From Patescibacteria group bacterium (GTDB taxonomy: Bacteria; Patescibacteriota; UBA1384; 2-12-FULL-50-11): DNA of 64,000 nucleotides. The notes beneath the pieces were generated by a model. It searched no databases, was not told where the DNA came from, and worked only from the letters and a program-made list of their open reading frames with translations. The position numbers were made by a program, and so were the translations under genes. The stretch spans positions 188,347 to 252,346 of the forward strand of contig BOKZ01000001.1 in NCBI GenBank assembly GCA_016861245.1, in the 5' to 3' direction. This document shows, one piece after another, positions 18,277 through 48,928 of the stretch (the first letter of the stretch is position 1; each line of letters begins with the position of its first letter).

Positions 18277-18293
18277 TGAGGTAAGATAGAAGT

Positions 18294-19550
18294 ATGCTAC
18301 GTCGTTTTTTCCTTTCGCTTTCTATCGTTGTTGGAGTAATTCTTAACCTATTACCGCAAACAGCGCTCGCGGCCGGTAGTATCACGCCGAGCGGCGGCAC
18401 CAGTGTTCAGAACGGGCAGACGTTTACAATTACCGTGCGAGCGAGCGGCGCCACCTTCGATAGTTTGCAAGGCACAATCTCAGTGTCCGGGCCGGTCTCG
18501 ATCGTCTCGTTCTCAGCCGGCGGCGCCACCTGGCTACCAGGTAAGGCTCCAGCCAACAACACGCAGTTTGTTGGGATTGTCTCGCCAACTAGCAACCTAA
18601 CGGTGGCGACGATTAGACTTAAGGGAACCAAAGAAGGCTCGGGCTCGGTTTCTGTTAGCGGCGTCCGGTTAGCTAGATCTGGTGCGGAAGTCGGTAACTC
18701 GGGCGGCAGCACCAAATTTACAATTACACGGGCGCTGGTTGTACCGGGCGCGATCACCGTCAGCTCAGCAACCCACCCAGATCAAGCAATCGCTTACGAG
18801 GCAACTACGATTGATTTGAGTTGGGATAAACCTGCCGGCGTAACTGGTTTCTCTTACCTCTACGATGATATCGCCGATACGACACCGCCAACAACTGTAA
18901 CCTCAGCTGATACAACGAAGCGCTACGAGGGGGCCGCGATCGGTACACATTACTTTCACATTCGAGCACTAAACGCCGACGGCTGGGGACCGACGACCCA
19001 CTTTAAAATAACTATTAAGGAGCCGGACCCGAAAGTCGATGAGACGCTCGCTAAAACCACTCTTAGCTCAGTTCGCTTGGCAGATGTATACACAAATGAT
19101 GTCGAGAACGGCACTGTTGCTGGTGTGGTATTCGAAGGCACGACGGTTGCAGGATTTGCCGCCAACGTCACACTACTACCAATGCCACCGCTGCCAGCTG
19201 AGACGAAGCTAACGAGCGAAATCAGCACGGACGGTGCCTGGCGATTACAGGTTGACGCACCGATTCCAGCTGGGTTTTATACCGTTACCGCTCAGGGACA
19301 GAAAGAAAAAGTATTAACACCAGTGAGCGACAAGATGCGCATTCAAATTAGTGTTGCGGAAGGCGGCGCGATTCGTCTTATTACCAATGCCGATAAAGAA
19401 AAGCCGCCGAAAAATGACACCATCAAAGTTCTCGGCCTAACAGTTAAAAAGAAGACTCTACTTTGGACTGGTCTGGCGCTCGGAAATGTACTACTACTTG
19501 CTGGTGTCGCCTTCGGGACCTACTACTATCTGCGACGTAGGCTTCGCTAA
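18294..19550 (+). CDS. cell-surface protein: signal peptide, cohesin-like beta-sandwich, FN3-like domain, C-terminal TM anchor
   Basis: Signal peptide MLRRFFLSLSIVVGVILNLLPQTALA. N-terminal domain GQTFTITVRASGATFDSLQGTISVSGPVSIVSF resembles a cohesin. FN3-like segment (TIDLSWDKPAG...HYFHIRALNADGWGP). C-terminal hydrophobic helix plus RRRLR. Confidence 0.5.
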   Translation: MLRRFFLSLSIVVGVILNLLPQTALAAGSITPSGGTSVQNGQTFTITVRASGATFDSLQGTISVSGPVSIVSFSAGGATWLPGKAPANNTQFVGIVSPTSNLTVATIRLKGTKEGSGSVSVSGVRLARSGAEVGNSGGSTKFTITRALVVPGAITVSSATHPDQAIAYEATTIDLSWDKPAGVTGFSYLYDDIADTTPPTTVTSADTTKRYEGAAIGTHYFHIRALNADGWGPTTHFKITIKEPDPKVDETLAKTTLSSVRLADVYTNDVENGTVAGVVFEGTTVAGFAANVTLLPMPPLPAETKLTSEISTDGAWRLQVDAPIPAGFYTVTAQGQKEKVLTPVSDKMRIQISVAEGGAIRLITNADKEKPPKNDTIKVLGLTVKKKTLLWTGLALGNVLLLAGVAFGTYYYLRRRLR

Positions 19551-20566
19551 GCAACTTCTTTAGCGTACACGTTCTCGATAAACTTGATCGAGTTGATCGC
19601 GTCTTCCAGCTTTATTCCGTTTCCAGCACCTATCTCCTGATAAAGCGTTGGGTGGTTTGGGCACGAACCGGCGTGAGTTCCGTAAGAGTTCGGCTCGAGT
19701 GACTCGCCGTGGTTTGCAACGAGCTTCTCCCATTTTCTCGTAACTAGATCATTAGAGAACATTACCCTCTCAACTTGGTCAAGCGCTCGGCCACCTATCT
19801 TAATAAAACCCTCTGAGCCTAGCACGGCGATCGAGCACTCTAGGTTTGATGGCTCAGAAGCGATCGTTACTTCCAACGACCCCGACGCACCGTTTGGAAA
19901 TTGTAAAATCCCAAAAACGGTATCTTCAAATGTAACGTGCTTATGTTTGTTGTTAAAACTTGCCGAAGCTTTGACTGTTGGGACGCCGAATAGTAGCTGT
20001 ACGATGTCAAGATAATGAATACCCACTTCATAAAGAGTTCTACCACCAACATTAATATCGGCTCTCCATGACTCGAAGTAGCTCAACGGCCGCTGCCAGC
20101 GCTGGATCAGACTAACCGAACGAATATCACCAAATAACTTTTGGTCTAGTGCTTCCCTAACCATACTGACAGTTGGATTGTAGCGGACCTGTAGCACAGC
20201 ATACGCGTTACGTTGTAGCTTTTTAGCAACATTAGCTATCTCTTGTACTCGGGATTCTATAAAGTCGATCGGTTTTTCCACTAAGATATCGTAGCCAGCC
20301 TGAAGCGAGTCGATTGCCTGTTGATAGTGAAGGCTGTTTGGAGTCGCAATCGTAACCATAGTCATCTTCCCCTTCATCTTTTGCAACATTTCTTTGTAGT
20401 CGGTAAAGCCGGGAACTTGGTACTCTTTCGACCTATGCTCAGTCTTTTTTGGATCAATGTCGCATAGTGCCACTAGTTCAAAATGGTCGCTATTGGCATG
20501 AATGGCCTCAAGGTGACGATCAAATATCATTCCGCAACCGATAATGCCAACTTTGTATTTAGCCAT
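19547..20566 (-). CDS. Gfo/Idh/MocA-family NAD-dependent oxidoreductase (WbpB-like sugar 3-dehydrogenase candidate)
   Basis: N-terminal Rossmann MAKYKVGIIGCGMIFDRHLEAI; family-typical length. Confidence 0.85.
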   Translation of the reverse strand: MAKYKVGIIGCGMIFDRHLEAIHANSDHFELVALCDIDPKKTEHRSKEYQVPGFTDYKEMLQKMKGKMTMVTIATPNSLHYQQAIDSLQAGYDILVEKPIDFIESRVQEIANVAKKLQRNAYAVLQVRYNPTVSMVREALDQKLFGDIRSVSLIQRWQRPLSYFESWRADINVGGRTLYEVGIHYLDIVQLLFGVPTVKASASFNNKHKHVTFEDTVFGILQFPNGASGSLEVTIASEPSNLECSIAVLGSEGFIKIGGRALDQVERVMFSNDLVTRKWEKLVANHGESLEPNSYGTHAGSCPNHPTLYQEIGAGNGIKLEDAINSIKFIENVYAKEVA

Positions 20567-20568
20567 AG

Positions 20569-21675
20569 CTACTCCTTTGATAAATTAATAATTTCTTCTA
20601 CAACTTTTTGCCTATCTGTCTCTGACAGCAGAGGGTGAACCGGCAGCGACACAACTTCCTTGCAGAGCTTCTCCGCAACCGGAAAGTCACCTTCTCGGTG
20701 TCCCAAGCTCTTGAATTGTGGGAAGAGGTGAAGCGGCTTCGGATAGTATACGCCTACCATTATCTCTTTTGCCTTTAGTCGTTCGACAAACTGGTCTCGA
20801 TCTATCGGGAAGTCTTCGGTAATACGCAACGTGTATTGATGAAAAACATGAGTTCTATTTGGTGCAACCCTAGGGGTAATCAACCCTGGGATATTATTGA
20901 ATGATTTGGTATAGTAGGCGGCGTTTTCTTGTCTAGCTTTTGTGAACCGCTCTAGCTTCTTAAGTTGAGCGTTACCGATCGCAGACGCAAAATCTGTTGT
21001 CCGATAGTTATAGCCTAAATCTAAATACTCATAACGCTGACTCTCGGATTGCCCGTGATGTCTGAATTGTTTAGCCAGCTCAAATATTTTCTCACTATTA
21101 GTGGTAATCATCCCACCCTCACCAGTTGTGATGTTTTTCGTTGCGTACAAAGAAAAGCAACTAGCGTCACCAAATGAGCCAACTGGTCTGTCGTTATACG
21201 TTGCACCAATGGCCTGACAGGAGTCGAAAATCAATTTAAGAGAATGTTTTTTTGCGATTGATTCTAATTCTTGAACCTCAGATGGTTGACCGTATAGATC
21301 AACTGGCAGAAGCGCTTTTGTGTCTTCTCTAATTGCTTTATTAATTAGTTTTGTGTTGATACAGAAGGTTTCCTCGTCAACGTCAACAAATATTGGTTTT
21401 GCGCCTTGCATCAAAATTGCGTTTGCAGTGGCAACAAACGTAAATGGTGTCGTAATGACGCTGTCACCAGCGCTAACCCCAGCGGCATAGAGCGCCGCGT
21501 GTAGCGCTGTCGTACCGTTACTGGTTGCAACTGCGAACTTAGACCCGCACTGCTTGGCGAAGTTCTCTTCAAACTCTTTCGTAACTGGCCCTTGAGCAAT
21601 TATTCCGGATTTGAGTACAGCGACAACACCGTCAACCTCCTCGGCTTCGATAATTGGTTGAACAATTTTTATCAT
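20569..21675 (-). CDS. DegT/DnrJ/EryC1/StrS PLP-dependent sugar aminotransferase (WbpE-like)
   Basis: PLP-lysine region SFGDASCFSLYATKNITTGEGGMI; 2-nt gap to the oxidoreductase gene. Confidence 0.9.
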   Translation of the reverse strand: MIKIVQPIIEAEEVDGVVAVLKSGIIAQGPVTKEFEENFAKQCGSKFAVATSNGTTALHAALYAAGVSAGDSVITTPFTFVATANAILMQGAKPIFVDVDEETFCINTKLINKAIREDTKALLPVDLYGQPSEVQELESIAKKHSLKLIFDSCQAIGATYNDRPVGSFGDASCFSLYATKNITTGEGGMITTNSEKIFELAKQFRHHGQSESQRYEYLDLGYNYRTTDFASAIGNAQLKKLERFTKARQENAAYYTKSFNNIPGLITPRVAPNRTHVFHQYTLRITEDFPIDRDQFVERLKAKEIMVGVYYPKPLHLFPQFKSLGHREGDFPVAEKLCKEVVSLPVHPLLSETDRQKVVEEIINLSKE

Positions 21676-21766
21676 CCAATACGTTCATACCAATCATCCA
21701 CGCGCGAGTCAAAGCTTGAAAAAAATGTTTACAGGTTTATACTGCCACTGTTTGTACCTAGAAATT

Positions 21767-22858
21767 ATGAAAACTTACGACTTCATCGTCATTGGCGCAG
21801 GTGTAGTTGGTTGCGCTATCGCAAGAGAGCTCTCGAGTCACGGATCAGTACTGGTTCTAGAACGACGAGAGCGCCCGGGGATGGAAACGAGTCGGTATAA
21901 TAGCGGCGTCATCCACTCAGGCATCCATTTACCACCGAGCTTTCTCAAGGCACGGTTAGCGCGTGAGGGGAGCGCGCTAGTTCGAGAATTTTGTCAGCAA
22001 TTCAACGTCCCAAATCGAGAGGTTGGAATGCATATCGTCGTCACTGCGCAAGATTGCTTCACACAGGTAGGGCAGCTCAAACAATTCACCAAGCTACTAC
22101 AGCGCGCACGTGAACAAGACATTCGCATAGAAGTAAAAAGTGGCCGAGCGATACGTACCGTTGAACCATCTGTACGCTGCTTGCTCGGTGTCCACGTGCC
22201 AGGTGTTCGCATCATCGACCAGTGCGCCTTCCTGGCCGCCTTAATCGATGACATGGGAAATAGCAGCACAACTATAGACTGCTGTATGGAGGTAACTGCG
22301 ATCGAGCCGGTTAATTCAGGCTTAGTAGTTACTGCTGGCTCCTCGCGGTTCCGGGCGAGTCTCGTTATCAACGCCGCAGGTTTATACGCCGACCAAGTCG
22401 CTCGACTCGCTGATGTGCAATTCCAGCACTACTACTATCGTGGCGAATACTACGAAATCGAGCCATCGGCAGGAATTACGGCAAACGGTCTCGTCTATCC
22501 GCTCCCACCCAGGCACAGTAAGGGGCTTGGCATTCATCTCACACCCACAACCGATGGTCGAATCTTACTCGGGCCGAACACAAAACGCGTCTCAGGCCCC
22601 GACGACTACAGGTCGGACAAAACACCTCCAGAAAAGTTCCTTAGCGCGGTTCGGGCTTTCCTTCCGAGCCTAACAACTGCGGATATTTCTTGGGCGTTTT
22701 CAGGAATCCGACCGAAGACCACCGACGAATCGATCGAGAGCGATTTTGTCATCGAAAAACACCCGGAATTACCGCTAATAAACCTGATCGGGATCGAGTC
22801 CCCGGGTCTCACCGCGTCGCTGGCAGTTGGGAATTACGTTAGTCAACAACTTTCCTAG
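21767..22858 (+). CDS. FAD-dependent oxidoreductase (DAO family)
   Basis: Dinucleotide-binding motif at the N-terminus (MKTYDFIVIGAGVVGCAIA). Listed ORF starts at 21716, but the Rossmann motif favours ATG 21767. Confidence 0.75.
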   Translation: MKTYDFIVIGAGVVGCAIARELSSHGSVLVLERRERPGMETSRYNSGVIHSGIHLPPSFLKARLAREGSALVREFCQQFNVPNREVGMHIVVTAQDCFTQVGQLKQFTKLLQRAREQDIRIEVKSGRAIRTVEPSVRCLLGVHVPGVRIIDQCAFLAALIDDMGNSSTTIDCCMEVTAIEPVNSGLVVTAGSSRFRASLVINAAGLYADQVARLADVQFQHYYYRGEYYEIEPSAGITANGLVYPLPPRHSKGLGIHLTPTTDGRILLGPNTKRVSGPDDYRSDKTPPEKFLSAVRAFLPSLTTADISWAFSGIRPKTTDESIESDFVIEKHPELPLINLIGIESPGLTASLAVGNYVSQQLS

Positions 22859-24989
22859 GAGAAATCCTAGGACTTTTTAATAAACCGAATAATAGCAACG
22901 CGAGCGCTAAAGCCGAGAGAAGCATTCCGACTAAGTAGTAGTTTTGTGGTTGATAATAAATAGACAAGCTAACTGTTATAGTTCCATCTGGATTGCTGCG
23001 CACAGACCCCGGGGAACGACTCCGTATAAGCTCAGGATCAACTTCCCAGCGATTGCCAAAATCCTTGTAGATTGTGTGTGACTGCTCAAAAAAGCTTGGC
23101 TGCTTGAATTCCGGCCATGTTATTAGTCGATTACTGCTAGCACATTCAGTTATCTCCTGATTTACGCTAACAACTTCGCACGAAATTGCCGTACCCGAAC
23201 CAATCTTCCAACCATAGTGGAACGACTCTAAGAAATTTAGACTAAACTTTGTATAGTCACGGATAGTAACATCGACTCGATACAGTGTTTCGCTCTCCTT
23301 TACGAACATTAAAGTCGGCCCCGTTATCCTACTCTCCGCGCCAACGACTCTATAAATATTTGGAGAAACTTGGGCTAACCCATCAGGGTTAGCTTTAACA
23401 ACTTTAGCTATAAAGTCTTTATCGGTGTGAATTAGACTAACATCATTTCCATAAACCGCCGGGTCAGAAAATTTATCAAAGTTTGAGGCGTAAACACTTG
23501 ATAAATCAAGAATATAGCCAACATTCTTTTGTCGTAGTAGCTCAAGATCGTAGCGCTCCAAGAACTTTCGCTGCAACGAGTCTTGAAAGTCTATTGGAGA
23601 GACAGAATTCTGAATATAACCACTGCCAGAAAATATACTAAAACTATCCCAGCCACTATTGGAAAGCGGGGTGTTATTAATTACTCGTACTGGTTGATCA
23701 ATAAGTGAATATTGATTAAAAAACGGGTAAACCAAAACACGGCTACTATCCTCCTTTTGTTGCAGAAAATCTTCGTAGCTCTGGAGACTTGCTCTAGCGT
23801 CTGAAAAACTCACTTTCGGCAACCCCCGTAGGAATAGCGGGTAGCTAAGTGCTAGATAACTGAATAGTAGAATTGTTACAAGTGTACGACGGGTAGCCCA
23901 AAGTCCTACTATTGCTAATAGTAGGAATACGACTAGCAGCGGTGCTGCGTGACCAGCTTCTCGAAGCATTGGGTAGAAGTAGGAGATAACAGGTATAGGG
24001 ATTGAAGCGTAGTAACCGCTAGTAAGTATGACAAATGAGAAAAGGCCAATTAAAAAGTAAAGTACTATTTTTCTTTCAGTGTAAGTTCTCTTGAATACTC
24101 CCCAAATAACTAAAGTGAAGAATAAAATACCAAAGAGCGCTGATGGAGCACCAAAGAATTTATCGATAAAAGTAGCTGGAGAGAACCATAGAGTAAAAAT
24201 TCTTAAAAAATTCGTCCGACCTAAATCAGTGAATGAGTTTACGGCTGCATTTGACCGCAACGAATCAACGGAATTCGCCCCAAAGAGTATTGGGAGCAAC
24301 CAATAACAGTTAAGTAACAGCATTGCTCCGAAAGCAGATAGGATGATCTTTAAACGATCTCGGGTGTAGTTTAAAAACAACCAGATCAATAAAGTAAGTG
24401 GTGTAAAAATAAAAAATTGTATTTGTACTGTTGTCAGCCAAGCCAGAAGCATCAAACCAACTACTGTTCTCGTTGAGAAGACTTTTGTACTCAAGAGAAG
24501 ACTTACTAGCCATAAATAAGCTGAGTAGGAGAAGATATAACCCCAATGCCCTGCTAAAAACTTATAAAAAATTGCGGGATTAAAGATAAAGAGCAGGCTT
24601 ACAAGCACTGCAATCAAGCGCTGAGCCGGGAATAGTTTTGAAATTATTAGTCTCCCAGCAAGATAGATTGAAATAAAGAATAAAAGATGGATTACTATTT
24701 GCGTTAGCTCGGGGGTAACTGTTAATCGACTAATAAGATAGGTAAGTAATGGAAAAGGTGTAGAGCTGGCGTAACCAAGTGGCGCGCCCAGGCCAGCGTA
24801 CTGCCAGGCTGAGAGTTCCAGCTTTGGGAAAGTGGAGAAATGCCTAGAGAAATACGGAAAAGTTCCGTCCCAATTATTACCGATGCCACCCCAGGCAACT
24901 AATACGTATCCAATTAGTAAACTTGCGACGAAAATTAACTCAAGTACATTGTGGCGGACAGACAACCAGTTTTTAAGCTTAGTTATCAT
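22839..24989 (-). CDS. large polytopic membrane protein with C-terminal soluble domain (GT-C-like glycosyltransferase candidate)
   Basis: 716 aa; about 12 N-terminal TM helices then a roughly 300-aa hydrophilic domain; layout like ArnT/PMT/YfhO-type enzymes; no firm motif. Confidence 0.4.
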   Translation of the reverse strand: MITKLKNWLSVRHNVLELIFVASLLIGYVLVAWGGIGNNWDGTFPYFSRHFSTFPKLELSAWQYAGLGAPLGYASSTPFPLLTYLISRLTVTPELTQIVIHLLFFISIYLAGRLIISKLFPAQRLIAVLVSLLFIFNPAIFYKFLAGHWGYIFSYSAYLWLVSLLLSTKVFSTRTVVGLMLLAWLTTVQIQFFIFTPLTLLIWLFLNYTRDRLKIILSAFGAMLLLNCYWLLPILFGANSVDSLRSNAAVNSFTDLGRTNFLRIFTLWFSPATFIDKFFGAPSALFGILFFTLVIWGVFKRTYTERKIVLYFLIGLFSFVILTSGYYASIPIPVISYFYPMLREAGHAAPLLVVFLLLAIVGLWATRRTLVTILLFSYLALSYPLFLRGLPKVSFSDARASLQSYEDFLQQKEDSSRVLVYPFFNQYSLIDQPVRVINNTPLSNSGWDSFSIFSGSGYIQNSVSPIDFQDSLQRKFLERYDLELLRQKNVGYILDLSSVYASNFDKFSDPAVYGNDVSLIHTDKDFIAKVVKANPDGLAQVSPNIYRVVGAESRITGPTLMFVKESETLYRVDVTIRDYTKFSLNFLESFHYGWKIGSGTAISCEVVSVNQEITECASSNRLITWPEFKQPSFFEQSHTIYKDFGNRWEVDPELIRSRSPGSVRSNPDGTITVSLSIYYQPQNYYLVGMLLSALALALLLFGLLKSPRISPRKVVD

Positions 24990-25326
24990 CCGTTAAGCTG
25001 GATTCTGTTGTCATCTTAAACGAGTGATAGACATGCAGAACGATAGTAACTGCAAATAGAATGAATACAATTTTTGCTGCTTGTTCAGCTCGATCGGTCC
25101 TATTAATTGCCAGTAGCAGCGCTACACCGATTAAGCCCCAAACAGTCCCTAACGCAAACAATTTGGGCTGTGGCACTTCAACAACTAGCCAAACCAGGAA
25201 GACTAGCGCTACTACATCGCGTACTCTCCAGTTAAGATACATCGCCAAAAAGCCGAAAGCCCCGACAATAATATACGAACGATATCGAATAATATATGAA
25301 GTTATGTTTTTATATAAATCCGTCAT
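24979..25326 (-). CDS. small membrane protein
   Basis: 115 aa, three hydrophobic helices; overlaps both neighbours by a few nt (operon coupling). Confidence 0.35.
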   Translation of the reverse strand: MTDLYKNITSYIIRYRSYIIVGAFGFLAMYLNWRVRDVVALVFLVWLVVEVPQPKLFALGTVWGLIGVALLLAINRTDRAEQAAKIVFILFAVTIVLHVYHSFKMTTESSLTDDN

Positions 25327-26702: not shown

Positions 26703-28923
26703 AGCGACTCCTTCGATTATATCCGATCCACCAGATAACCATAAGCACGAATAGGAACCCAAACGAGATTATCTGACTGATTGCTGTCAGGATTTGTGGG
26801 TAAAAAGTAATCATAAATGAGTACTGTTCACCTGGTTTAAGACTGGGTTGGCTTATTAGCCAAGCACTTTCCTGTTTTCCCTCGACGGATGAGTTCAGCG
26901 AGCGAAGGCGAAGGCTAGAAGAAATACTTGTTGGGTTATAAAAACAATTTGAATTTCCAAATGAATCGGCACAATTCCCTGGCCTGATGAATAATCGATA
27001 GTTTTCTGAGACGGGTTCGTTCAGGGTAATACTAAGCGGTTGCTCTGTAGCAATAAACTCTCCACTCAATCGCCCTGGCGCGACTTCCCTAAAGGTGACA
27101 GAGTCACTCTCCGCACCGGTAATTTGTAAATAGTTTTGCTGCCAACCAGGTACTTCATAGACACTAATATCCCCAAACTCTTTAACTAACTTATAACCTT
27201 TACGTAATTCTTTATCTAAGCTTGTAACACTAGCTTCAGAAGCCGAAAAATAAACATCACTCAATTGAGTAAGCGGCCAGTTAATATCTTTGTGTAGCAA
27301 CACATATCGTACATTCGATCGTTTCAACTGTTCCATATTAAGGCTGGTAAACGGTTTGCCCGAGCTATCACTAGATTGTCCGGTAATAAAACGTTTGTCG
27401 GTCATTAGCATCAACGGATAAGTCCCCCAGTAACCGTCACTGCCAGATTGCCAGCGTAAAGAGGCTAGGCTTGTGTTTATAATCGGTAACGGTAAGACAA
27501 AAAAATGATCTGGCTGTTCGTTCAGCCAGGCGGCAAGCTGGGTATAGGAATCAGGTACTTTAACTTTTCTGGAGGGAATAACGTCGTTCCTGGCCGGAAA
27601 CACCTGATCCTTCCAAAATGGGGACGAATAAGTGAAAAGGTAAATGATGACTATTACCAGGACACCGCCAGTCTTAGCATATTTGGGCAACGTCGAGCTT
27701 GGGATTAATGAAACAACATAACCAAACAAAACTCCTACGGAGAGTAAGGTTAAAGGCATAAATCTTTGCCAAATTGACCTAAACACCTCACCGATCGCTG
27801 GAAGAGAATAGAAGTAGTTATTAATACTTTTCATTGGCGAGTAATCACCTAGAGTTAGCTGACCAAAAACCAGCAAAAGCACAAAGAAGAAGATTATATT
27901 TGGCGTGAGACGACGGCGTAGCATTAGCCAGCAAACCGTCGCAAATACGCTGACCCCGATAATTGAGGTGGCTGTGGCAGCGTATGTGCTAAACCATAAG
28001 TGATAGGGCTGACCACCAACTTTATCTCCCAAGAAATCTGGCCCAAGTAATTTAAAGTATTCAAGTGGGCGAGTAGAGTTAAACTTTAATAACGCTTCTG
28101 TAGTAATATCGCTGACAGCGCGACGCGACAACTCCCCGCCCACAAACAGTAGCTGTGGTAGTAGCCAAAAAAGATTAACAACAAGCCAAAAAACGCCCGT
28201 TAATCCGGTAAGAAGAAGAGCCCGATATCTTCGCTGTCTTGACTTCGTCCCAATTATCAAAAAGATGGCCAGATAAATGAATAAAACTCCCCAGGTAATT
28301 AGCATGAACGGCGGCGTAACATAGCTTGGAGTTAAAAGCAGTGACCAGGCTAGCGTAATAGTTACTGCGGACATAATAATTGGTTTGGTAGAGTGCAAGC
28401 GATTAATAAATAAGCCTAAAATTAATGGGAAGAAAGCGAAAAAAAACAGTATCCAAGAGAGCGCACTTAGCGCCACAACAGCGTAGACGTTTGTTGAATA
28501 GAGTAACCCAGAAACTACCGCTCCTGCTTTGGCCTTCTCCGGAAAGCACTGCCTAAATAAATAGTAAGTCGACAAACCGGCTCCGACGATAATCGTGTAG
28601 AGAAGGCACTTTTGGACAGCGGCAACCGACAAAACTAAGCCAATTTTTTGTAGAGCTAATAATAACAATCCAAACGGCAATAAAAAGGGGAACTTACTTG
28701 CATCCGGTGTACTCAACGCAATCTTCCCAGAAACTAGATGAAAATAGTCTGCCAAATAAACCTGTTGGTTAATGCCGAAAGAGGCGTCGTCACCCCAAAT
28801 GAATCCGTTAGCGGGGAACCAGGAAAATGCCACTAAACCTAATACTAGAAACACCAACCATGGCCTGGGAGAGATAAACGAGATTAAGCGACGAAATATA
28901 TTCCTACCAGCGCTTACCAGCAT
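26683..28923 (-). CDS. large polytopic membrane protein with C-terminal soluble domain (GT-C-like glycosyltransferase candidate)
   Basis: 746 aa; first extracytoplasmic loop carries WGDD (GT-C DD/DE-like motif); more than 12 TM helices then a roughly 330-aa domain. Confidence 0.45.
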   Translation of the reverse strand: MLVSAGRNIFRRLISFISPRPWLVFLVLGLVAFSWFPANGFIWGDDASFGINQQVYLADYFHLVSGKIALSTPDASKFPFLLPFGLLLLALQKIGLVLSVAAVQKCLLYTIIVGAGLSTYYLFRQCFPEKAKAGAVVSGLLYSTNVYAVVALSALSWILFFFAFFPLILGLFINRLHSTKPIIMSAVTITLAWSLLLTPSYVTPPFMLITWGVLFIYLAIFLIIGTKSRQRRYRALLLTGLTGVFWLVVNLFWLLPQLLFVGGELSRRAVSDITTEALLKFNSTRPLEYFKLLGPDFLGDKVGGQPYHLWFSTYAATATSIIGVSVFATVCWLMLRRRLTPNIIFFFVLLLVFGQLTLGDYSPMKSINNYFYSLPAIGEVFRSIWQRFMPLTLLSVGVLFGYVVSLIPSSTLPKYAKTGGVLVIVIIYLFTYSSPFWKDQVFPARNDVIPSRKVKVPDSYTQLAAWLNEQPDHFFVLPLPIINTSLASLRWQSGSDGYWGTYPLMLMTDKRFITGQSSDSSGKPFTSLNMEQLKRSNVRYVLLHKDINWPLTQLSDVYFSASEASVTSLDKELRKGYKLVKEFGDISVYEVPGWQQNYLQITGAESDSVTFREVAPGRLSGEFIATEQPLSITLNEPVSENYRLFIRPGNCADSFGNSNCFYNPTSISSSLRLRSLNSSVEGKQESAWLISQPSLKPGEQYSFMITFYPQILTAISQIISFGFLFVLMVIWWIGYNRRSRYASTNT

Positions 28924-30016
28924 ATGCCTTCATTTCACGAATAATATTCTGGCTTATGTCGGGTGCGTCGTAAGGGTTGCCAACTTCTACATATTTCTTC
29001 TGAAGCTCGTCGTAGTTATCCATAATATAATTCAGCTTGTCCTTAATTTCAGATTCATCACATTTTGCTAGAAAACTAACACCGTATTCAATTGGCTCTA
29101 GCCAAGCGGTATGGTCACGTAGAATTACACACGGCTTCTTGCTCCAGAATGCCTCTTTTTGTAGTCCACCTGAATCAGTAACAACGAGCTTAGAGTGCTC
29201 AACAAGCGCTACAATCTCTCGGTAGCTGAGTGAACGAATAAACTTAATATTTGAGCCGTCTTTTATAACATTTAGCTCGTCCATCCTTGCTTTCGTGCGC
29301 GGGTGGACTGGGAAGACAAATTGTAGATCCGGATAGTGCCCCACCGCACTAACTAGGGCTTGAAGTGACTCCTTAGTATCGACGTTCTTAGCGCGATGAG
29401 CCGTTAAAACAGCATACTCTCCCTCTTTAACATCAAACTCCTCTAAGATTTTCTTTTCCTCCGTCATATTTTTCGTACACCACTCATAAACTTCAAACAG
29501 TGGGTCGCCGACAAACTTAATATCACCAGCAACATGTTCTTTCTCAAGGTTCTTTGAAGAAATATCCGAAACCGTTAGCATTACATTTGAACAATGGTCT
29601 AGTAGCCGACGATTTATCTCTTCCGGCATATCCATCTCCCACTCGCGACAACCTGCCTCAATATGAGCCAACGGAATATTCATCTTTACAGCGGTAATAC
29701 CGGCTGCGAGTGAGGAGTTTGTATCTCCAAAGACTCCGACCATATCTGGTTTAAACTCTTCAAAATACTTCTCGAGCCTTAAGATAATATTAGCCGTCTG
29801 TTCGCCATGAGTTCCAGATCCAACGTTAAGATTAATGTCTGGCTCTGGCAAACCAAGGTCTTCAAAGAATATTTTATTCATTTCGTAATCGTAATGTTGG
29901 CCGGTATGAACTAACTTAAAATCGATATCGGGATCAGATTTAAAGGCAGGTATTAGCGTTGCCGAACGGATGATTTCTGGCCTTGTACCGATTATGTAGA
30001 CAATTTTTTTCTTCAT
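28904..30016 (-). CDS. wecB: UDP-N-acetylglucosamine 2-epimerase (non-hydrolysing)
   Basis: N-terminal KIVYIIGTRPEIIR (GTRPE motif); 370 aa. Confidence 0.9.
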   Translation of the reverse strand: MKKKIVYIIGTRPEIIRSATLIPAFKSDPDIDFKLVHTGQHYDYEMNKIFFEDLGLPEPDINLNVGSGTHGEQTANIILRLEKYFEEFKPDMVGVFGDTNSSLAAGITAVKMNIPLAHIEAGCREWEMDMPEEINRRLLDHCSNVMLTVSDISSKNLEKEHVAGDIKFVGDPLFEVYEWCTKNMTEEKKILEEFDVKEGEYAVLTAHRAKNVDTKESLQALVSAVGHYPDLQFVFPVHPRTKARMDELNVIKDGSNIKFIRSLSYREIVALVEHSKLVVTDSGGLQKEAFWSKKPCVILRDHTAWLEPIEYGVSFLAKCDESEIKDKLNYIMDNYDELQKKYVEVGNPYDAPDISQNIIREMKAYAGKRW

Positions 30017-31140
30017 TTATTTAATTTCTCCTTGATCCTAATCACGGTCTGCCGTAAATTTGCCTCACTGTAACGACTCCGTGCGTATTCTCTTGATGTA
30101 CTCCTCATACTATTTAACTGTTTTTCTTCTAGTGTGCAAAGGAACGAGGCGACTTCTTCAGGATTAAATGGATCTATAATCCACCCAATCTCTTTCGGTA
30201 CAAGATCTGAATCTATGGTAATCTTCTGCTTGATTTTTTCGGTTAACGCTGCGTATTTCGGAATAATAATTGGCGTACCACTCGCTAACGCCTCAACAGC
30301 TGGTAGGGTAAGGTAAGTCTCATCGGCGTATGACCATACCACATCAGCCTCACTAATTAAGGCGCTAATTTTCTCGCGATCACTTACGTAGCCGAAATAT
30401 TCGACCTGTTCATACATATCGGCTATTTTACTTAGTTGGTCTTGGAATTCCCCAACTCCAATAAATCTAAACTGTAAATCCGGGCGCTGCGTATCTGCCG
30501 CTATTCTTTCTGCCGCTTCAATGAGCGGTAAGCACATCTTATCGGAATCAAGTCGACCTACAAACTGGATAATAATCTTGCCGTCCGGTTTCGCTAGATC
30601 TTTCTCAAAAAAACGGTTTTCTGCGAAGTGCTCGTTGGTGACAATCCGCTCCCTGGGGATAAAGTCTAGCACATTCTCAACACTCCCTCGGGAGTTTACA
30701 ACCACCAAATCGACACCAGCACACCAAAATCTTAAGAAGGATGATTGCCACGCTACTTTCTTGGCAATATATCCGTGATACATAACAACCATTTTTCCCC
30801 CAAACAACCACCTAAACGGCAGGAGCATCAGCGCAATAGCAAAACCATTTGTAATCACCGCTTTGTTTCTTGAGAAGATACCAAATATGATGGCCAGCAA
30901 GAGCAGTGGCAAGTTCCAAAGCATTGAGATGAGAGCGCCAAGATTAGTGAGATAGCCCCATTTATCGTACCTAGGGAAAGGAATAGAGTAATACTTTATT
31001 TCTGGTTGGCGGTGGAATACCCCACCTAATCCAGCGCAAACAATTCGGTAGTCAGTTTGAAGTTGCTGCAGAATGCGCTCGATACAAATCCAACTACCAC
31101 CAGAGAATGCAGGCGTTACTACTAACAACTTACCCTTCAT
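30013..31140 (-). CDS. membrane-associated glycosyltransferase family 4
   Basis: C-terminal GT-B domain (FVGRLDSDKMCLPLIEAAERI); start moved to MKGKLLVV (31140) to avoid a 50-nt overlap with the upstream GT2. Confidence 0.75.
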   Translation of the reverse strand: MKGKLLVVTPAFSGGSWICIERILQQLQTDYRIVCAGLGGVFHRQPEIKYYSIPFPRYDKWGYLTNLGALISMLWNLPLLLLAIIFGIFSRNKAVITNGFAIALMLLPFRWLFGGKMVVMYHGYIAKKVAWQSSFLRFWCAGVDLVVVNSRGSVENVLDFIPRERIVTNEHFAENRFFEKDLAKPDGKIIIQFVGRLDSDKMCLPLIEAAERIAADTQRPDLQFRFIGVGEFQDQLSKIADMYEQVEYFGYVSDREKISALISEADVVWSYADETYLTLPAVEALASGTPIIIPKYAALTEKIKQKITIDSDLVPKEIGWIIDPFNPEEVASFLCTLEEKQLNSMRSTSREYARSRYSEANLRQTVIRIKEKLNK

Positions 31141-31966
31141 TCGTTGATAAATTGGAAAGGACAAGCCCAAGACCGCCAAATAAAAACTCGCAGGTTTTCA
31201 TGAAGAGCATGCCAAGCCCAACGATAGGATTTGCAAATAATTTTCCCGGTTTCGAGAAGAATAGTTTATATCGACCCAGAATTCCCGTTTGTTGGTTCAA
31301 CGAACTACTGCCTTTATTTTTTTGTGCGTATTTTGAGAACTTTTGCGCGTAGTAATACTTCTTTTTAATCGTCTTCCAAAGATTAATTTTACCCTCGTTA
31401 TGAAAAATATAGCTTTTAATACTAGCGATCTTTCCGGTTTTACCAGCGCGCTGAGAAAGGTCCCAATCTTCACCACTTATCAATTTTTCATCGTACCCAC
31501 CAAGTTGCTGATAAAGACTATGTCGAAAGAAGCGGGCGGCCTCCATCCAGCTCACGCCTACATAGAAACTGCGCTCCAGCTTTTTACACTGTGCCCAAAA
31601 GCCCTCGCCAAACGACTCTTCTGGGACTACAACAGCCGCAACATATGGCTTCCCTTCCATTGCTTCAACGCATTCCTGAACGACTGTTGCAGACAATTCC
31701 ATATCACTATCAATAATAAAAACGTATTCACCTCTTGCTTGAGATACGGCGTAGTTTCGTTGAGTGCTGCGCTCTGGACCTTTTTGGAAAAAGGTTACGC
31801 CAAGTTTTCGAGATATCTCAGGAGTCTTATCAGAAGAAAAGTTATCAACTACGATAACTTCAATATTCTTATATGTCTGATTTTTGACCGAAACTATACA
31901 GCGTTCAATGAACTTCTCAGAATTTTTAGTTGGGATAATTACCGATACTAGGACATCTTTCTTCAT
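31130..31966 (-). CDS. glycosyltransferase family 2
   Basis: VSVIIPTKNSEKFIERCIVSVKNQTYKNIEVIVVDNFSSDKT (GT-A motifs), DSD motif. Confidence 0.85.
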   Translation of the reverse strand: MKKDVLVSVIIPTKNSEKFIERCIVSVKNQTYKNIEVIVVDNFSSDKTPEISRKLGVTFFQKGPERSTQRNYAVSQARGEYVFIIDSDMELSATVVQECVEAMEGKPYVAAVVVPEESFGEGFWAQCKKLERSFYVGVSWMEAARFFRHSLYQQLGGYDEKLISGEDWDLSQRAGKTGKIASIKSYIFHNEGKINLWKTIKKKYYYAQKFSKYAQKNKGSSSLNQQTGILGRYKLFFSKPGKLFANPIVGLGMLFMKTCEFLFGGLGLVLSNLSTNEG

Positions 31967-33066
31967 TTGATAAACAGGATTTGCTTAAAACAATTGTAGC
32001 TGTTTTCAAAAGTAATTTCCTTGCTCCACTCCCACGCGGTGTTGCGTAGTCGTGAATATAGCGCCTTATCGTTATATAGAGCGATCACCTGCTCAGCCAG
32101 TGACGTCGGTGTATTGGAAACTGATACTAAACCAGTAACATTATTTTTCGTACTATCGCGTAGGCCATCTACATTATAGACAACAGCTGGCGTTCCTTGG
32201 CTATTTGCCTCAGTTACGATCAGACCCCAGCCTTCCTTGATTGATGTAACTAGAATAGCGTGAGACTGTTGCATAAGTTTTACTTTCTTATCAGAGCTGA
32301 CTCGACCAAGATATGTTACGTCTGAAGAGAATTGACTCTTTTTGATATAAGTCATACAGCGATTAAAATACCCTCCCTCGCCGGCACCAGCGATTATTAG
32401 TTTCAGTTCTGGGATTTTTGATCGCGCGTGCTCAAACGCCTTAATTTGATCAAGCGTACGTTTCATTGGTCTTATGGCGCCAAGAGAGAGTAGGGTGAAG
32501 TCATTAAATTTGGTCACTGACTTTAAACTCGCTACGGGTTCTAGCTCGATGCCGACTGGGACAATTGAAACATTTTCACCTTTAAAACCATATCTACAAA
32601 GATCGTTCTTGGTGCTCTCAGACACTACAATTGCCTTATTACTACTTAGGATCTTTAGGTAAAGAGGCTCTATTAAATAACCCAAAATGTTTAAAGGAAA
32701 AAACATTTGAAAGAACCAAACCTCACGAGCCAATTGATGGAAAAAAAGAGTACGTTTGCTCCTTAAACCATAAAACTGGGAAAAGAACGGGACGGTATTT
32801 ATTTCCTCAATCAGTAAATCTGGACTACCAAATTCCCCACGTTTAGCCGCCCTAAAGGCTTTCAAGTAAACTGAAAGTCTGCCGCCCGATCTAACTACCC
32901 GATATGGGCCTATCTCTCGATTGCCAGCATTTGGGTAAGATGCCGTAAATAGGGTAACATCATGTCCGTCTTTCGCTAACCTAGTTAAAAGCTGGTCCGT
33001 CACCACTTCTGCACCACCGGCCAACGGATGAAACTTGTCTTTCCAGCTCAGCCACAATATCTTCAT
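31963..33066 (-). CDS. glycosyltransferase family 4
   Basis: SIKEGWGLIVTEANSQGTPAVV (E-x7-E motif). Confidence 0.85.
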   Translation of the reverse strand: MKILWLSWKDKFHPLAGGAEVVTDQLLTRLAKDGHDVTLFTASYPNAGNREIGPYRVVRSGGRLSVYLKAFRAAKRGEFGSPDLLIEEINTVPFFSQFYGLRSKRTLFFHQLAREVWFFQMFFPLNILGYLIEPLYLKILSSNKAIVVSESTKNDLCRYGFKGENVSIVPVGIELEPVASLKSVTKFNDFTLLSLGAIRPMKRTLDQIKAFEHARSKIPELKLIIAGAGEGGYFNRCMTYIKKSQFSSDVTYLGRVSSDKKVKLMQQSHAILVTSIKEGWGLIVTEANSQGTPAVVYNVDGLRDSTKNNVTGLVSVSNTPTSLAEQVIALYNDKALYSRLRNTAWEWSKEITFENSYNCFKQILFIK

Positions 33067-33071
33067 GAAGC

Positions 33072-33809
33072 CTATTTAGTCGAACGGTAATAATTTAGGA
33101 TTCTCGCTCGATAAAAAATCGCCAATGTATCTGTTATCATTCGCTTAATGGTTTTGAAATTAATGCTCGATGCAGCGTTATTAAAATTTAACTCTACCGG
33201 CGCCTCAAAGATTCTTCTAAAACCAAATTGCTGAGCAATTACTAATAGTTCCAGATCGATTGCAAATTGCTTTACTAAAGCTTTTGGGAAAATGGTTTTG
33301 GCTACGTTTGCTTTAAAAAACTTAAGCCCGGCTTGGGTATCGGTAATGTTCAGCCCAAAGAGTAATCTAATTAGCAGCTGGTAGCATCGAGAATATATTC
33401 TCCTCAATGGCGGATAATGCACCTTCGAAGCTGGATGTCGTTTTGAGCCGATCACAATATCCGCATCGAATAACTCCATCAAACTAACATATTTATCGAA
33501 TTGCTCTGGGTTAAAGTCCCCGCCCGCATCAGTAAAAGTGATAATTTTCCCAACTGCCTGTTCAACTCCGTATTTAACAGCATATCCCTTGCCCTGATTT
33601 TTTTCGTAGTCAAGAACTCGGACGTGCGGTGAGTTAACCTTTCTTGCTTCTTCAGTAGTTTTGTCGGGTGAACCATCGACAACAACAAGTACTTCGTAGC
33701 TATATGGAAGTAAGTTGTGTACATCAACAATACGCTCAATGGTTTGTCGAACACTTTTTTCCTCTTTGTACGCCGGAATAACTATCGAGAGTTTTATTTG
33801 GTCTTTCAT
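33072..33809 (-). CDS. glycosyltransferase family 2 (polyprenyl-phosphate sugar transferase-like)
   Basis: LSIVIPAYKEEKSVRQTIERIV...VVVDGSPDKT; DAD motif. Confidence 0.85.
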   Translation of the reverse strand: MKDQIKLSIVIPAYKEEKSVRQTIERIVDVHNLLPYSYEVLVVVDGSPDKTTEEARKVNSPHVRVLDYEKNQGKGYAVKYGVEQAVGKIITFTDAGGDFNPEQFDKYVSLMELFDADIVIGSKRHPASKVHYPPLRRIYSRCYQLLIRLLFGLNITDTQAGLKFFKANVAKTIFPKALVKQFAIDLELLVIAQQFGFRRIFEAPVELNFNNAASSINFKTIKRMITDTLAIFYRARILNYYRSTK

Positions 33810-35086
33810 CGTTGAAATAACAAGCTTTTAAGCTGATTGCGTTTTAATATTAGGTAGTCTACAACCATCACACCCAGAAGTGCAATGAATCCCAAGCGTA
33901 ATTGATCTAGCAGTACCGCCACGTTCTGAGGAATTTTAAGACTAGTATAAGTTATGAGAATTAACCCAATTACTAACATCTCGGCAATAAACCAATAGCG
34001 TTGGATAGATAAGAAGTACTGGCTCATCAGGTTCACAAGGGACAATGATATTACTAGCACCGCAGAAATTGAAAGTAAGCTTGCTAGTTCTAGGTAATCG
34101 TTTCCATAAAGTACTCTGACAATCTCCCTATCAAACAACGCGTACAATACCAACAACACTCCCGAACCTATTAGAGTGATCAATATCGCCCCAAAAAGCG
34201 TTTGTACGTGTTTTTCACCGCGGCTTCTCTGTGCAGCAATCAAGGGAAACATGACAGATGTAATCGGTCCTGAGATATAGAATATTATTTTCGCCACTGT
34301 CGATACTGCTACATATTGTCCAGCAATTTCAGGTAGAAAGAATTTCTTTGCTAAAAGCACATCGATATTCATTAATAAGAGTAGGGCGAAGTTACTAGCA
34401 AGTGCGGGTAAGAAATATAGTAATACTTCCCGCTTCTGGGGGAAGTATTCTCCCTTACTTCGTACCGTAGTTTCTCCTTTTAGCATCCTTTTTAGCACTA
34501 CCCAACTCAGGGTAAGTGCACCAAGTGAACCAATAAAGATAGAGAATGTCGCTCCGGACAGACCCATTCCAACTTTAATAAAAATTACGGCGGCAATTAA
34601 CTTCACTAGATACTCAGTAATATTACTAACAGCTAACTGATCAAAACGCTGCGTTCCTTGTAAAACTCCTCGATTGACCGTGAGAACCAACGCAAGAACA
34701 ATTGAGCTAAGCGCTAACCCTAGTGCTTGCTGATTATTTATTGCGAAAAACTTTGAAGCATAAGGAATGGAGAATAGCGCAAGCATGGTAATAAGCACGG
34801 AGCCAAGAACCACCACTTTACTGAACTTCTGGTGAAAATATGAAATACCGGCGATATCTTTTTTAGCGAAGAGATTACTAACGAAATACATAGTCACTGT
34901 CAGTAGTCCACCACTAATAGCAGTGGTGAGCAAAAAATACGAATTAATGGCGCCTAGATCACCAAAATCGGCCGGACCAAGCATCCTCCCCATCACCGAG
35001 CTATAAACGTAGGAGAGTATCCCTCCAATTACTGTTCCAAATGTAATCACAGCGCTACCCTTCAGAAGTGCTGTTATCCTATTCAT
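33806..35086 (-). CDS. polysaccharide flippase (MOP/Wzx-like)
   Basis: Polytopic MOP-type protein; the listed ORF N-terminal extension (79 aa, non-hydrophobic) was trimmed to MNRITALLKG (ATG 35086). Confidence 0.7.
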   Translation of the reverse strand: MNRITALLKGSAVITFGTVIGGILSYVYSSVMGRMLGPADFGDLGAINSYFLLTTAISGGLLTVTMYFVSNLFAKKDIAGISYFHQKFSKVVVLGSVLITMLALFSIPYASKFFAINNQQALGLALSSIVLALVLTVNRGVLQGTQRFDQLAVSNITEYLVKLIAAVIFIKVGMGLSGATFSIFIGSLGALTLSWVVLKRMLKGETTVRSKGEYFPQKREVLLYFLPALASNFALLLLMNIDVLLAKKFFLPEIAGQYVAVSTVAKIIFYISGPITSVMFPLIAAQRSRGEKHVQTLFGAILITLIGSGVLLVLYALFDREIVRVLYGNDYLELASLLSISAVLVISLSLVNLMSQYFLSIQRYWFIAEMLVIGLILITYTSLKIPQNVAVLLDQLRLGFIALLGVMVVDYLILKRNQLKSLLFQR

Positions 35087-35121
35087 TACCTGTATTCTAG
35101 CGCAATAAACCTGATACGGAA

Positions 35122-35148
35122 ATAAAAAATCCCCGCCGAAGCGGGGAG
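35122..35148 (-). terminator. rho-independent terminator downstream of the acetyltransferase gene
   Basis: minus strand reads CTCCCCGC-ttcg-GCGGGG followed by ATTTTTTATTT. Confidence 0.6.
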
Positions 35149-35171
35149 CGATCACGGAGGTACCCCAGTGA

Positions 35172-35687
35172 TCAGGAAGTGAGCATGGGTTCCGCTGGCA
35201 GAGCCTTAGAGACCCAGAGCTCGCCGTCAGGAATATCCTTGACGACAAGTGTTCCAGCGCCAGTTCGCGCGCCTTCACCGATGGTGATGCCGCAACGAAC
35301 GACCGTTCCAGCGCCCAAGGCACAGTTTTTCTTCAGCAGCGTGTGCTCAAGCCACTCTTCCTTGGTTCTGGTGTCGATCGCGGTGGGGTTGCGGTCGTTT
35401 GTGAACGCGCAGTGCGGCCCGATGAACGCGCCGTCTTCGAGAACGATACCCTCGTACAACGAGTTTCCGTTCTGAACTTTGCAGTTGTCTCCGATGACGA
35501 CTCCGGGGCCGATGTAGCAACCCTGACCGATCACGCAATTGCGACCGATCTTAGCGCCAGGGCAGACGTGACTAAAATGCCAGATCTTGGTGCCCTCGCC
35601 AATCACGGATCCCTCGTCGACGTATGCCGACTCGTGGTAGAAATACCCTTCAGGGGTTTGGACGAGTTCTTGTGCTAGTTTTGACAT
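35172..35687 (-). CDS. left-handed beta-helix (hexapeptide) sugar N-acetyltransferase (WbpD/WlbB-like)
   Basis: Multiple [LIV]GxxxxI hexapeptide repeats; start at MSKLAQ (35687) with GGAGG RBS; gene is GC-rich relative to its surroundings. Confidence 0.85.
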   Translation of the reverse strand: MSKLAQELVQTPEGYFYHESAYVDEGSVIGEGTKIWHFSHVCPGAKIGRNCVIGQGCYIGPGVVIGDNCKVQNGNSLYEGIVLEDGAFIGPHCAFTNDRNPTAIDTRTKEEWLEHTLLKKNCALGAGTVVRCGITIGEGARTGAGTLVVKDIPDGELWVSKALPAEPMLTS

Positions 35688-35757
35688 GGTTCCTCCGTTA
35701 AGGTGCTTGGATATAATACGCAATTGTCAGAAATTGTAAAGACAATTGGAGATAATT

Positions 35758-48927: not shown

Positions 48928-48928
48928 T

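Follow-up and report, generated by a model that had tools for sequence, protein, structure and literature searches.

A strain-variable cassette encoding a pair of predicted AftD-like GT-C membrane proteins in a probable surface glycan locus of a CPR-type bacterium

We describe a glycan biosynthesis locus within a 64,000-nt stretch of contig BOKZ01000001.1 (the window), bacterial DNA that lies near a replication origin and that we infer to come from an organism of the Candidate Phyla Radiation (CPR, or Patescibacteria) type. At the center of the locus, a 12.07-kb cassette is exchanged as a block between near-identical strains by recombination in conserved flanks. Its two largest genes encode membrane proteins, M716 and M746, predicted to be paralogous glycosyltransferases (GTs) of the GT-C fold that resemble mycobacterial AftD. 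We assign a probability of roughly 0.6 to the reading that this is a CPR cell-surface glycan locus organized like an O-antigen or capsule serotype locus and working by the mechanism proposed below.

Gene families were assigned from a listing of open reading frames (ORFs) with searches of Pfam, NCBIfam, PDB sequences and PHROG, and strains were compared by blastn of relatives' contigs (L007, L020, L023, L024 and L025) against the window. An original prediction made from the sequence alone had named a set of gene classes here, and Pfam and NCBIfam recovered every one of them in place. Its inventory was nevertheless incomplete, as it did not mention DAO, tm115 or orf459. The central genes are as follows.

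19547-20566, minus strand: Gfo/Idh/MocA oxidoreductase (Gfo; Pfam)
20569-21675, minus strand: DegT/DnrJ/EryC1 pyridoxal-phosphate sugar aminotransferase (DegT; Pfam, 420 bits)
21767-22858, plus strand: DAO-family flavin adenine dinucleotide (FAD) oxidoreductase (DAO; Pfam DAO)
22815-34887: strain-variable cassette, 12.07 kb, delimited by loss of blastn homology to near-identical strains
22839-24989, minus strand: M716, a 716-aa membrane protein
24979-25326, minus strand: tm115, a 115-aa membrane protein
25323-26702, minus strand: orf459, a 459-aa protein
26683-28923, minus strand: M746, a 746-aa membrane protein
28904-30016, minus strand: WecB-family 2-epimerase (TIGR00236, 299 bits, cutoff 210)
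30013-31140, minus strand: GT4a (Pfam)
31130-31966, minus strand: GT2a (Pfam)
31963-33066, minus strand: GT4b (Pfam)
33072-33809, minus strand: GT2b (Pfam)
33806-35086, minus strand: Wzx/MOP-family flippase, 426 aa (Pfam Polysacc_synt, 61 bits)
35147-35130, minus strand: terminator-like hairpin with a 7-bp stem, 6 GC pairs and a T-run
35172-35687, minus strand: hexapeptide-repeat acetyltransferase (Pfam)

The genes had been predicted to chain through 4-nt overlaps, which holds for four junctions; elsewhere there are overlaps of 11 or 20 nt, or gaps of 2 or 5 nt. The acetyltransferase is its own transcription unit: as predicted, it is GC-rich (0.57), and the 85-nt gap between it and wzx contains the strong terminator-like hairpin.

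Comparison with close relatives defines the exchanged unit. Contigs L007 and L020 are 95-96% identical in nucleotide sequence to the window from the H+-pyrophosphatase side up to position 22815, where similarity stops at the convergent 3' ends of the DAO and M716 genes. From the other side, L023, L024 and L025 are 93-96% identical from 45.7 kb down to 34887 and then diverge, about 200 nt inside the 5' end of wzx. This left junction was located through members of 90%-identity clusters; identical copies of the acetyltransferase, orf170 and DUF2200 gave the same cassette or nothing. With breakpoints at 22815 and 34887, the exchanged unit measures 12.1 kb and not the 16 kb originally proposed for the island.

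Three cassette types occupy this site between the acetyltransferase and DAO, the window carrying type 1. Type 2 encodes Wzx, GT2, WecB, GT2, a PMT_2 GT-C, GT2 and then proteins of 698 aa (with a GT-C_AftD match), 499, 117 and 702 aa. Type 3 opens with Wzx, GT2 and WecB, followed by an orphan of 725 aa and a HAD phosphatase; a block on the other strand then encodes an SDR epimerase, a flippase-like protein, an enzyme of the UbiA family and an orphan of 376 aa, and the cassette ends with GT2 and proteins of 709, 499, 117 and 702 aa. Amino acid identity between the window and types 2 and 3 is 98-99% for the acetyltransferase, DegT and Gfo (98.9% for DegT and 98.8% for Gfo in L007; 98% for the acetyltransferase in strains with other cassettes). 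It falls to 76% for GT2b, 56% for Wzx, 35% for M716, 33% for tm115 and 27-29% for WecB. Likewise, at 90% identity the clusters of flank proteins hold 7-25 members on many long contigs, M716 has two and orf459 one.

No integrase, transposase or flanking repeat was found at the cassette borders, and every ORF of the cassette encodes either a glycan-related product or an orphan membrane protein. The nearest tRNA gene (Ser, 37397) lies 2.5 kb outside the breakpoint, and no tRNA of the conserved left flank coincides with it. The absence of an integrase, transposase and repeat boundaries argues for allelic replacement and not for a mobile island. The original suggestion of horizontal acquisition is supported in refined form: strains 93-96% identical in their flanks carry unrelated cassettes at this site, and of the enzyme set only the epimerase belongs to the cassette, since Gfo, DegT and the acetyltransferase are conserved in the flanks.

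A fragment labelled as a Nanoarchaeota metagenome-assembled genome (MAG) encodes homologs of GT2b (43%), GT4b (36%), GT2a (39%) and M716 (30%) in a row (L008, JBBSYU010000127.1, 168-8009). This contig, 10 kb long with 27.5% GC, is either a mis-binned CPR fragment or a sign of a cassette shared across domains.

Base composition marks the same block. In 1-kb windows, GC is 0.39-0.43 at 23-35 kb and about 0.50 in the flanks, and the interval 22815-34887 averages 0.417, compared with 0.49 for the rest of the window. GC at third codon positions (GC3) is 0.37-0.44 (mean 0.40) in the ten genes from M716 to Wzx, whereas 33 genes elsewhere average 0.53 (p=1.6e-5 by the Mann-Whitney test). Both measures thus bear out the predicted AT-richness of 22.8-35.1 kb, and the uniform GC named beforehand as telling against it was not seen; the low-GC block spans only some 12 kb. 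The step is sharp at both ends, bounded by DAO (GC3 0.54) and the acetyltransferase (GC3 0.67), and the cassettes of the window, L007 and L004 are each AT-rich relative to their own flanks.

Could the AT-rich block instead be ordinary compositional heterogeneity of a native locus, with no gene exchange? The core dnaA-dnaN-recF genes (47569-51286) have a GC of 0.41 and GC3 of 0.37-0.45, AT-rich like the cassette and well below their neighbours, so composition alone would not prove transfer. Their low GC is probably not due to recent transfer, because DnaA is conserved at 90% identity or more across eight sequence variants. The missing integrase, transposase and flanking direct repeats also suit a native locus. 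What largely refutes this explanation, and leaves it very improbable, is the presence at exactly 22815-34887 of three non-homologous or highly diverged cassettes with abrupt breakpoints between flanks that are 93-96% identical. As in a serotype locus, different cassettes of atypical GC lie between the conserved flanks of close strains.

M716 and M746 are the largest products of the cassette. The original prediction regarded both as GT-C-like and proposed annotating them with profile models, yet neither has a Pfam match even at E<=10, and neither matches NCBIfam or any PDB sequence. In M716, approximately 11 N-terminal transmembrane (TM) segments precede an ectodomain rich in beta structure, and one further TM segment lies at the C terminus. 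Invariant in its family are W40-D41 in the first loop, NPAIFYKLLAGH, RExGH and NSGWDS, with W40-D41 invariant or nearly so in ten sequences. M746 carries at residues 43-46 the first-loop WGDD motif noted originally, of which D46 is invariant in the three M746-family sequences. Pairwise similarity between the two proteins is bare (E=5e-5). Compared as families by hhalign, they align over 637 columns with 99.7% probability (E=1.7e-25), indicating ancient full-length paralogs, and D41 of M716 pairs with D46 of M746.

Predicted structure matches GT-C enzymes only, in agreement with the original suggestion. AftD is the top match by both methods and gives the longest alignment (535 residues), at 12-13% sequence identity. 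The model combines a multi-TM N-terminal domain containing the GT-C helical core with an extracytoplasmic domain, and a conserved Asp sits in the first extracytoplasmic loop. This Asp, just after TM1 in both families, occupies the structural position of AftD K39/D41, residues shown to be essential in AftD (bioRxiv 10.1101/2019.12.22.885152). In addition, the 698-aa giant of the type-2 cassette, the positional equivalent of M746, has a precomputed PF11847 (GT-C_AftD) match. On this evidence, M746 and M716 are predicted to be A-type and B-type AftD-like GT-C-fold membrane glycosyltransferases, respectively.

The family is large. An exhaustive HMMER search with M716 (E<=1e-3) returned 3,703 clusters at 50% identity; a word-indexed homolog search had understated it at 3-10 clusters. 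One distant member, P0137, matches PF11847 at E=1.4e-3 only, below threshold. A subfamily of approximately 1,210-1,250 aa (P0042, P0047, P0048 and about 25 others) is covered by the M716 profile over its first ~560 positions only and has extra C-terminal domains, including CBM_4_9 in P0042; another relative carries LysM, and a Taylorbacteria contig (L010) encodes a 1,193-aa version of the long form. On some contigs otherwise 99-100% identical (L011 16831-19005 and L013 9316-11490), the gene call for M746 gives 724 aa and a start 47 nt after WecB, in place of 746 aa with an overlap. Because of these calls, the true start of M746 is uncertain by 22 residues, which leaves the WGDD loop unaffected.

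The giants belong to a four-gene module. Every related locus examined (L004, L005/L009, L007 and L020) encodes an A-type giant, a single-pass protein of ~500 aa whose ectodomain is all beta, a protein of ~110-117 aa with some four TM segments, and a B-type giant. The small protein, tm115 in the window, has approximately four TM segments and matches nothing in Pfam, NCBIfam or PHROG; L004, L005 and L007 encode homologs of it (20-42 bits) at the equivalent position. It is a candidate lipid-linked-sugar flippase or module subunit. The larger partner, orf459, is anchored by a single N-terminal TM pass, beyond which lies an all-beta ectodomain; its position is conserved and its sequence hypervariable, with positional equivalents scoring 8-29 bits only and no homolog outside its own cluster in a search space of 5.8 billion. 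A single-sequence AF2 model was unusable (pLDDT 41). The orphan genes had no PHROG match, and nothing points to a phage origin. From its position and topology alone, orf459 is a candidate acceptor-binding or specificity subunit; it has been speculated that GT-Cs lacking a carbohydrate-binding module (CBM) may need a separate acceptor-binding partner (PMC8035078).

GT2b is present in all three cassette types. Its best PDB matches are 5MLZ (DPMS), 5EKP (GtrB) and ArnC, and its best NCBIfam match is PpgS (62 bits, cutoff 370), which suggests a GT2 resembling the polyprenyl-monophosphate sugar synthases DPMS, GtrB, ArnC and PpgS. The remaining cytoplasmic enzymes GT4a, GT2a and GT4b, which match only generic exopolysaccharide or teichuronic acid GTs in NCBIfam, are by sequence chain-building glycosyltransferases; the nearest PDB relatives of GT2a are chondroitin and heparosan synthases.

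The type-3 cassette points to the class of donor. Its UbiA-family enzyme passes the NCBIfam cutoff for decaprenyl-phosphate phosphoribosyltransferase (260 versus 234 bits), and the decaprenyl-phosphate pentofuranose donor route is that of AftD/Emb and of three-component pentofuranose systems (PMC11127046). The phosphoribosyltransferase pathway therefore points to lipid-monophosphate sugar donors. These donor genes lie at L025 15935-20463, in L024 and L026, and at L007 822-4911, with an HAD-IIIA phosphatase and an LPG_synthase_TM flippase-like protein; they form a mycobacterial-style polyprenyl-phosphate-pentofuranose donor pathway in a CPR-type genome.

Within the libraries and literature searched, neither this module nor its CPR setting has been described. 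We tentatively entertain the further idea, which we consider possible but rather less than an even bet, that the four genes form a previously undescribed CPR machine for extracytoplasmic glycan assembly, a GT-C heteromer whose ectodomain partner sets acceptor specificity. Pmt1-Pmt2 and EmbA-EmbB provide precedents for heteromers. If such a machine exists, swapping the module along with its donor-sugar genes would let these ultra-small episymbionts vary their surfaces in the manner of serotypes, and that variation would determine how susceptible they are to phage or how they attach to hosts.

The enzymes of sugar-nucleotide biosynthesis had been predicted to be a WbpB/WbpE/WbpD/WbpI-type set, and the assignment stands for Gfo and the acetyltransferase. 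Gfo best matches 3Q2I (139 bits) and 3Q2K (131 bits), with the P. aeruginosa/Thermus WbpB 3OA2 at 56 bits. We take 3Q2I and 3Q2K, whose PDB molecule names are generic, to be the WlbA UDP-GlcNAcA 3-dehydrogenases of C. violaceum and B. pertussis. The best NCBIfam match of Gfo is UDP-GlcNAc 3-dehydrogenase, below its cutoff, and its IMG name is ‘UDP-N-acetyl-2-amino-2-deoxyglucuronate dehydrogenase’; these matches place it among putative WlbA/WbpB-like UDP-sugar 3-dehydrogenases. The acetyltransferase best matches 3MQG (125 bits), presumably WlbB, followed by other 3-amino-sugar N-acetyltransferases. With the IMG name ‘UDP-2-acetamido-3-amino-2,3-dideoxy-glucuronate N-acetyltransferase’, it is placed among putative WlbB/WbpD-like 3-N-acetyltransferases. 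The epimerase scores ~250 bits against the Thermus UDP-2,3-diacetamido-2,3-dideoxy-glucuronic acid 2-epimerase (8SXV and related entries), tied by M. jannaschii 4NEQ, and 113-180 bits against classical WecB/MnaA enzymes (E. coli WecB, 145). It is thus a non-hydrolysing UDP-sugar 2-epimerase, putatively WbpI-like in substrate. The fourth enzyme, DegT, belongs with certainty to its family, as judged from sequence, and is not specifically WbpE-like: it matches many sugar aminotransferases in the PDB, among them 3- and 4-aminotransferases, at 200-246 bits and WbpE at 199 bits.

Genome context ties the four enzymes together functionally, since a Berkelbacteria MAG encodes DegT, Gfo, acetyltransferase, GT4, WecB, two GT-Cs, a 512-aa and a 115-aa protein contiguously. 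The PDB matches of Gfo, the acetyltransferase and the epimerase, the IMG names of the first two and this synteny all support the pathway. The absence of a WbpA among the scanned window ORFs leads us to keep both a uronic acid and a neutral sugar as the product.

On another reading no 2,3-diacetamido sugar is produced: the enzymes might instead make a dTDP-3-acetamido-3,6-dideoxyhexose (Qui3NAc or Fuc3NAc) or a 4-amino sugar, with WecB producing UDP-ManNAc only. DegT matches perosamine synthase, an ArnB-like enzyme and QdtB better than WbpE, with PseC as its best NCBIfam match, and the second-tier matches of the acetyltransferase are dTDP-3-amino-sugar acetyltransferases (7S43, 4MZU and QdtC); the lack of a WbpA in the window fits as well. 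However, the window encodes no RmlA, 4,6-dehydratase or 3,4-ketoisomerase, and Gfo and the acetyltransferase lie closest to structures that we take to be WlbA and WlbB. Moreover, the epimerase groups with the UDP-GlcNAc3NAcA 2-epimerase and not with classical WecB, and all four genes are contiguous in Berkelbacteria. We therefore judge this alternative distinctly unlikely, and retain the diacetamido pathway.

Directly beside the Gfo-DegT pair lies DAO, which resembles an L-2-hydroxyglutarate oxidase or type 2 glycerol-3-phosphate oxidase (best NCBIfam match LhgO, 219 bits, below the cutoff of 299; IMG name ‘glycerol-3-phosphate dehydrogenase’). Recycling by DAO of 2-hydroxyglutarate formed by a WbpB-type dehydrogenase was considered and rejected as unlikely. 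First, Gfo is closer to 3Q2I/3Q2K, which we take to represent the alpha-ketoglutarate-independent WlbA class. Second, DAO is absent from L004 and L005, lies on the opposite strand and has a host-like GC3 of 0.54. Finally, P. aeruginosa WbpB yields D-2-hydroxyglutarate (PMC8651671), whereas DAO is L-2-hydroxyglutarate-oxidase-like. WlbA-class enzymes are described as following a sequential mechanism without alpha-ketoglutarate (PMC10622841). DAO delimits the conserved flank at its right edge and probably has no part in the glycan pathway.

Other features of the window bear on the glycan locus or surround it.

11984-13111, minus strand: GT4 (Pfam)
13111-14304, minus strand: Wzy_C/O-antigen-ligase-family protein (Pfam)
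14305-15492, minus strand: Wzy_C/O-antigen-ligase-family protein (Pfam)
15489-16976, minus strand: second Wzx (Pfam)
17137-19550, plus strand: orf379 and orf418, two conserved surface-protein genes
37397-37488, 39019-39106 and 45658-45914, left flank: three tRNA-Ser genes (GCT, CGA and TGA) and one tRNA-Arg gene
39170-45595: type IV pilus ATPase and several small T4SS_pilin-family genes
53423-61649: block encoding a VirB4/TraG-like ATPase, NlpC/P60, an M23 peptidase and a 1,429-aa protein

The glycan genes at 11984-16976 belong to the conserved right flank, being 96% identical in nucleotide sequence in L020, 95% identical in L007 and syntenic in L004. Between them and Gfo, orf379 ends in two canonical dockerin repeats (weak Dockerin_1 match), and orf418 has a signal peptide, beta-rich Ig/cohesin-like domains (weak Big_7 match), a C-terminal TM anchor and an RRRLR tail. 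Homologs of both adjoin the locus in L004, L007 and Berkelbacteria L009, and four lineages in all show the pair beside a glycan locus of this type. From their sequences, these proteins are candidate acceptors or mere neighbours of the glycan system, and they may serve for surface display as a cohesin-dockerin pair or be targets of glycosylation. The genes at 39170-45595 and 53423-61649 represent typical CPR surface and uptake machinery flanking the glycan locus, and profile searches also identified GroEL, the H+-pyrophosphatase and VanW in the window. Identical sequence was found on several Logan contigs, and the orphan proteins have relatives in Candidatus Berkelbacteria, Candidatus Taylorbacteria and an unclassified ‘DTUPAT3’ MAG. 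Because the scan for loci by gene pattern gave only four, taxonomic spread is under-sampled. Literature searches on CPR surface-glycan loci and on ‘DTUPAT’ turned up nothing specific.

We propose the following mechanism. Gfo, DegT and the WlbB-like acetyltransferase, encoded in the flanks, would make a UDP-2-acetamido-3-acetamido-2,3-dideoxy-hexose, as the uronic acid or as the neutral sugar, which the WbpI-like epimerase of the cassette would convert to the manno form. The four cytoplasmic GTs would build a lipid-linked oligosaccharide, the glycan backbone, to be flipped by Wzx. Separately, GT2b would charge polyprenyl phosphate with a single sugar in the cytoplasm. After flipping of this polyprenyl-phosphate sugar, possibly by tm115, M716 and M746 would transfer the sugar to the glycan outside the membrane, and orf459 may help to recognize the acceptor.

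The same genes can be read differently at the last step. The giants might be oligosaccharyltransferases or ligase-polymerases that move the Wzx-flipped polyprenyl-diphosphate oligosaccharide en bloc onto surface proteins, such as orf379 and orf418, or onto a wall polymer. The cassette does encode a Wzx and four cytoplasmic GTs with no Wzy or ligase of its own, and three lineages conserve orf379 and orf418 beside the locus. The B-type giants also carry the invariant NSGWDS at the start of the ectodomain, which presumably resembles the WWDxG motif of oligosaccharyltransferases. Against en bloc transfer, AftD is the top structural match by both methods and over the longest alignment, a positional ortholog matches Pfam GT-C_AftD, and the type-3 cassette brings a monophosphate pentofuranose donor pathway. 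Furthermore, relatives of the giants carry glycan-binding CBM_4_9 or LysM domains, and the conserved flank already supplies two Wzy_C/ligase-family genes. We regard en bloc transfer as unlikely, and favor the transfer of single sugars from a lipid-monophosphate donor.

Several observations weigh against the serotype-like locus and mechanism that we favor. The scanned ORFs of the window include neither a WbpA-type UDP-GlcNAc 6-dehydrogenase (UDPG_MGDP_dh family) nor an initiating phosphoglycosyltransferase, which leaves the pathway incomplete in this stretch. As a match to DegT, WbpE is outscored by perosamine synthase and QdtB. GT2b, at 43-62 bits, falls far below the equivalog cutoffs and has no membrane anchor, tm115 has no match in GtrA, SMR or any other family of flippases, and M716 and M746 fall below every Pfam and NCBIfam threshold. 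The organism, in addition, is known from metagenomes only.

CPR bacteria are a large and mostly uncultured group, many of which live attached to host cells and whose envelopes are poorly understood. Judging from the locus described here, a serotype-style variable glycan site driven by recombination is kept even in a genome of roughly 0.7 Mb or more. The locus also offers a predicted fold and a likely chemistry for a large superfamily (about 3,700 clusters at 50% identity) that is blank in profile libraries. The invariant Asp residues, the donor-pathway association and the defined breakpoints are testable targets for studying how pressure from phages or hosts shapes surface variation.

Low-GC glycan cassettes, GT-C decoration systems and the Wbp/Wlb pathway are each already known, and the locus can be set against all three. 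Homologs of the 3-dehydrogenase, aminotransferase, 3-N-acetyltransferase and 2-epimerase of the Wbp/Wlb pathway (P. aeruginosa WbpA/B/E/D/I; Bordetella WlbA-D) are present, the dehydrogenase being closest to 3Q2I/3Q2K, which we assign to the Bordetella/Chromobacterium WlbA class. In contrast to that pathway, the window has no WbpA, the genes are split by a variable cassette and lie 13.5 kb apart, and only the epimerase travels with the cassette.

Mycobacterial AftD (GT-C; PF11847/DUF3367; PDB 6W98/6WBX), at about 1,400 aa, is approximately twice the size of M716 and M746 (716-746 aa), which lack its three CBMs and its C-terminal four-helix bundle for acyl carrier protein (ACP) binding and have a single terminal TM segment instead. 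The giants, unlike AftD, are paired as A and B paralogs and accompanied by two small partner genes, in a CPR host and not in Actinobacteria, and the window cassette contains no pentofuranose donor genes.

Multi-component transmembrane glycosylation systems, namely GtrA-GtrB-Gtr*, CsbB-GtcA-YfhO and the GT136 pentofuranose systems (PMC11127046, PMC8035078), likewise combine a GT-C bearing an acidic loop residue with a GT2 related to polyprenyl-phosphate sugar synthases and with a small multi-TM protein, a Wzx-type flippase or both. They too stand alongside a Wzx-dependent backbone pathway, and their variation gives serotype-like diversity. The module here differs in that tm115 is not a GtrA or SMR protein, GT2b has no membrane anchor, each module contains two GT-Cs, and an additional single-pass ectodomain protein is always present.

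The closest organizational parallel lies with the O-antigen (rfb) and capsule (cps) loci, in which a low-GC variable center holding Wzx, GT and sugar-nucleotide genes sits between conserved flanks and cassettes are replaced by flank recombination. Compared with the rfb and cps loci of Proteobacteria and Firmicutes, the host here is a reduced-genome CPR bacterium, the Wzy_C genes reside in the conserved flank, and the variable part is dominated by GT-C enzymes.

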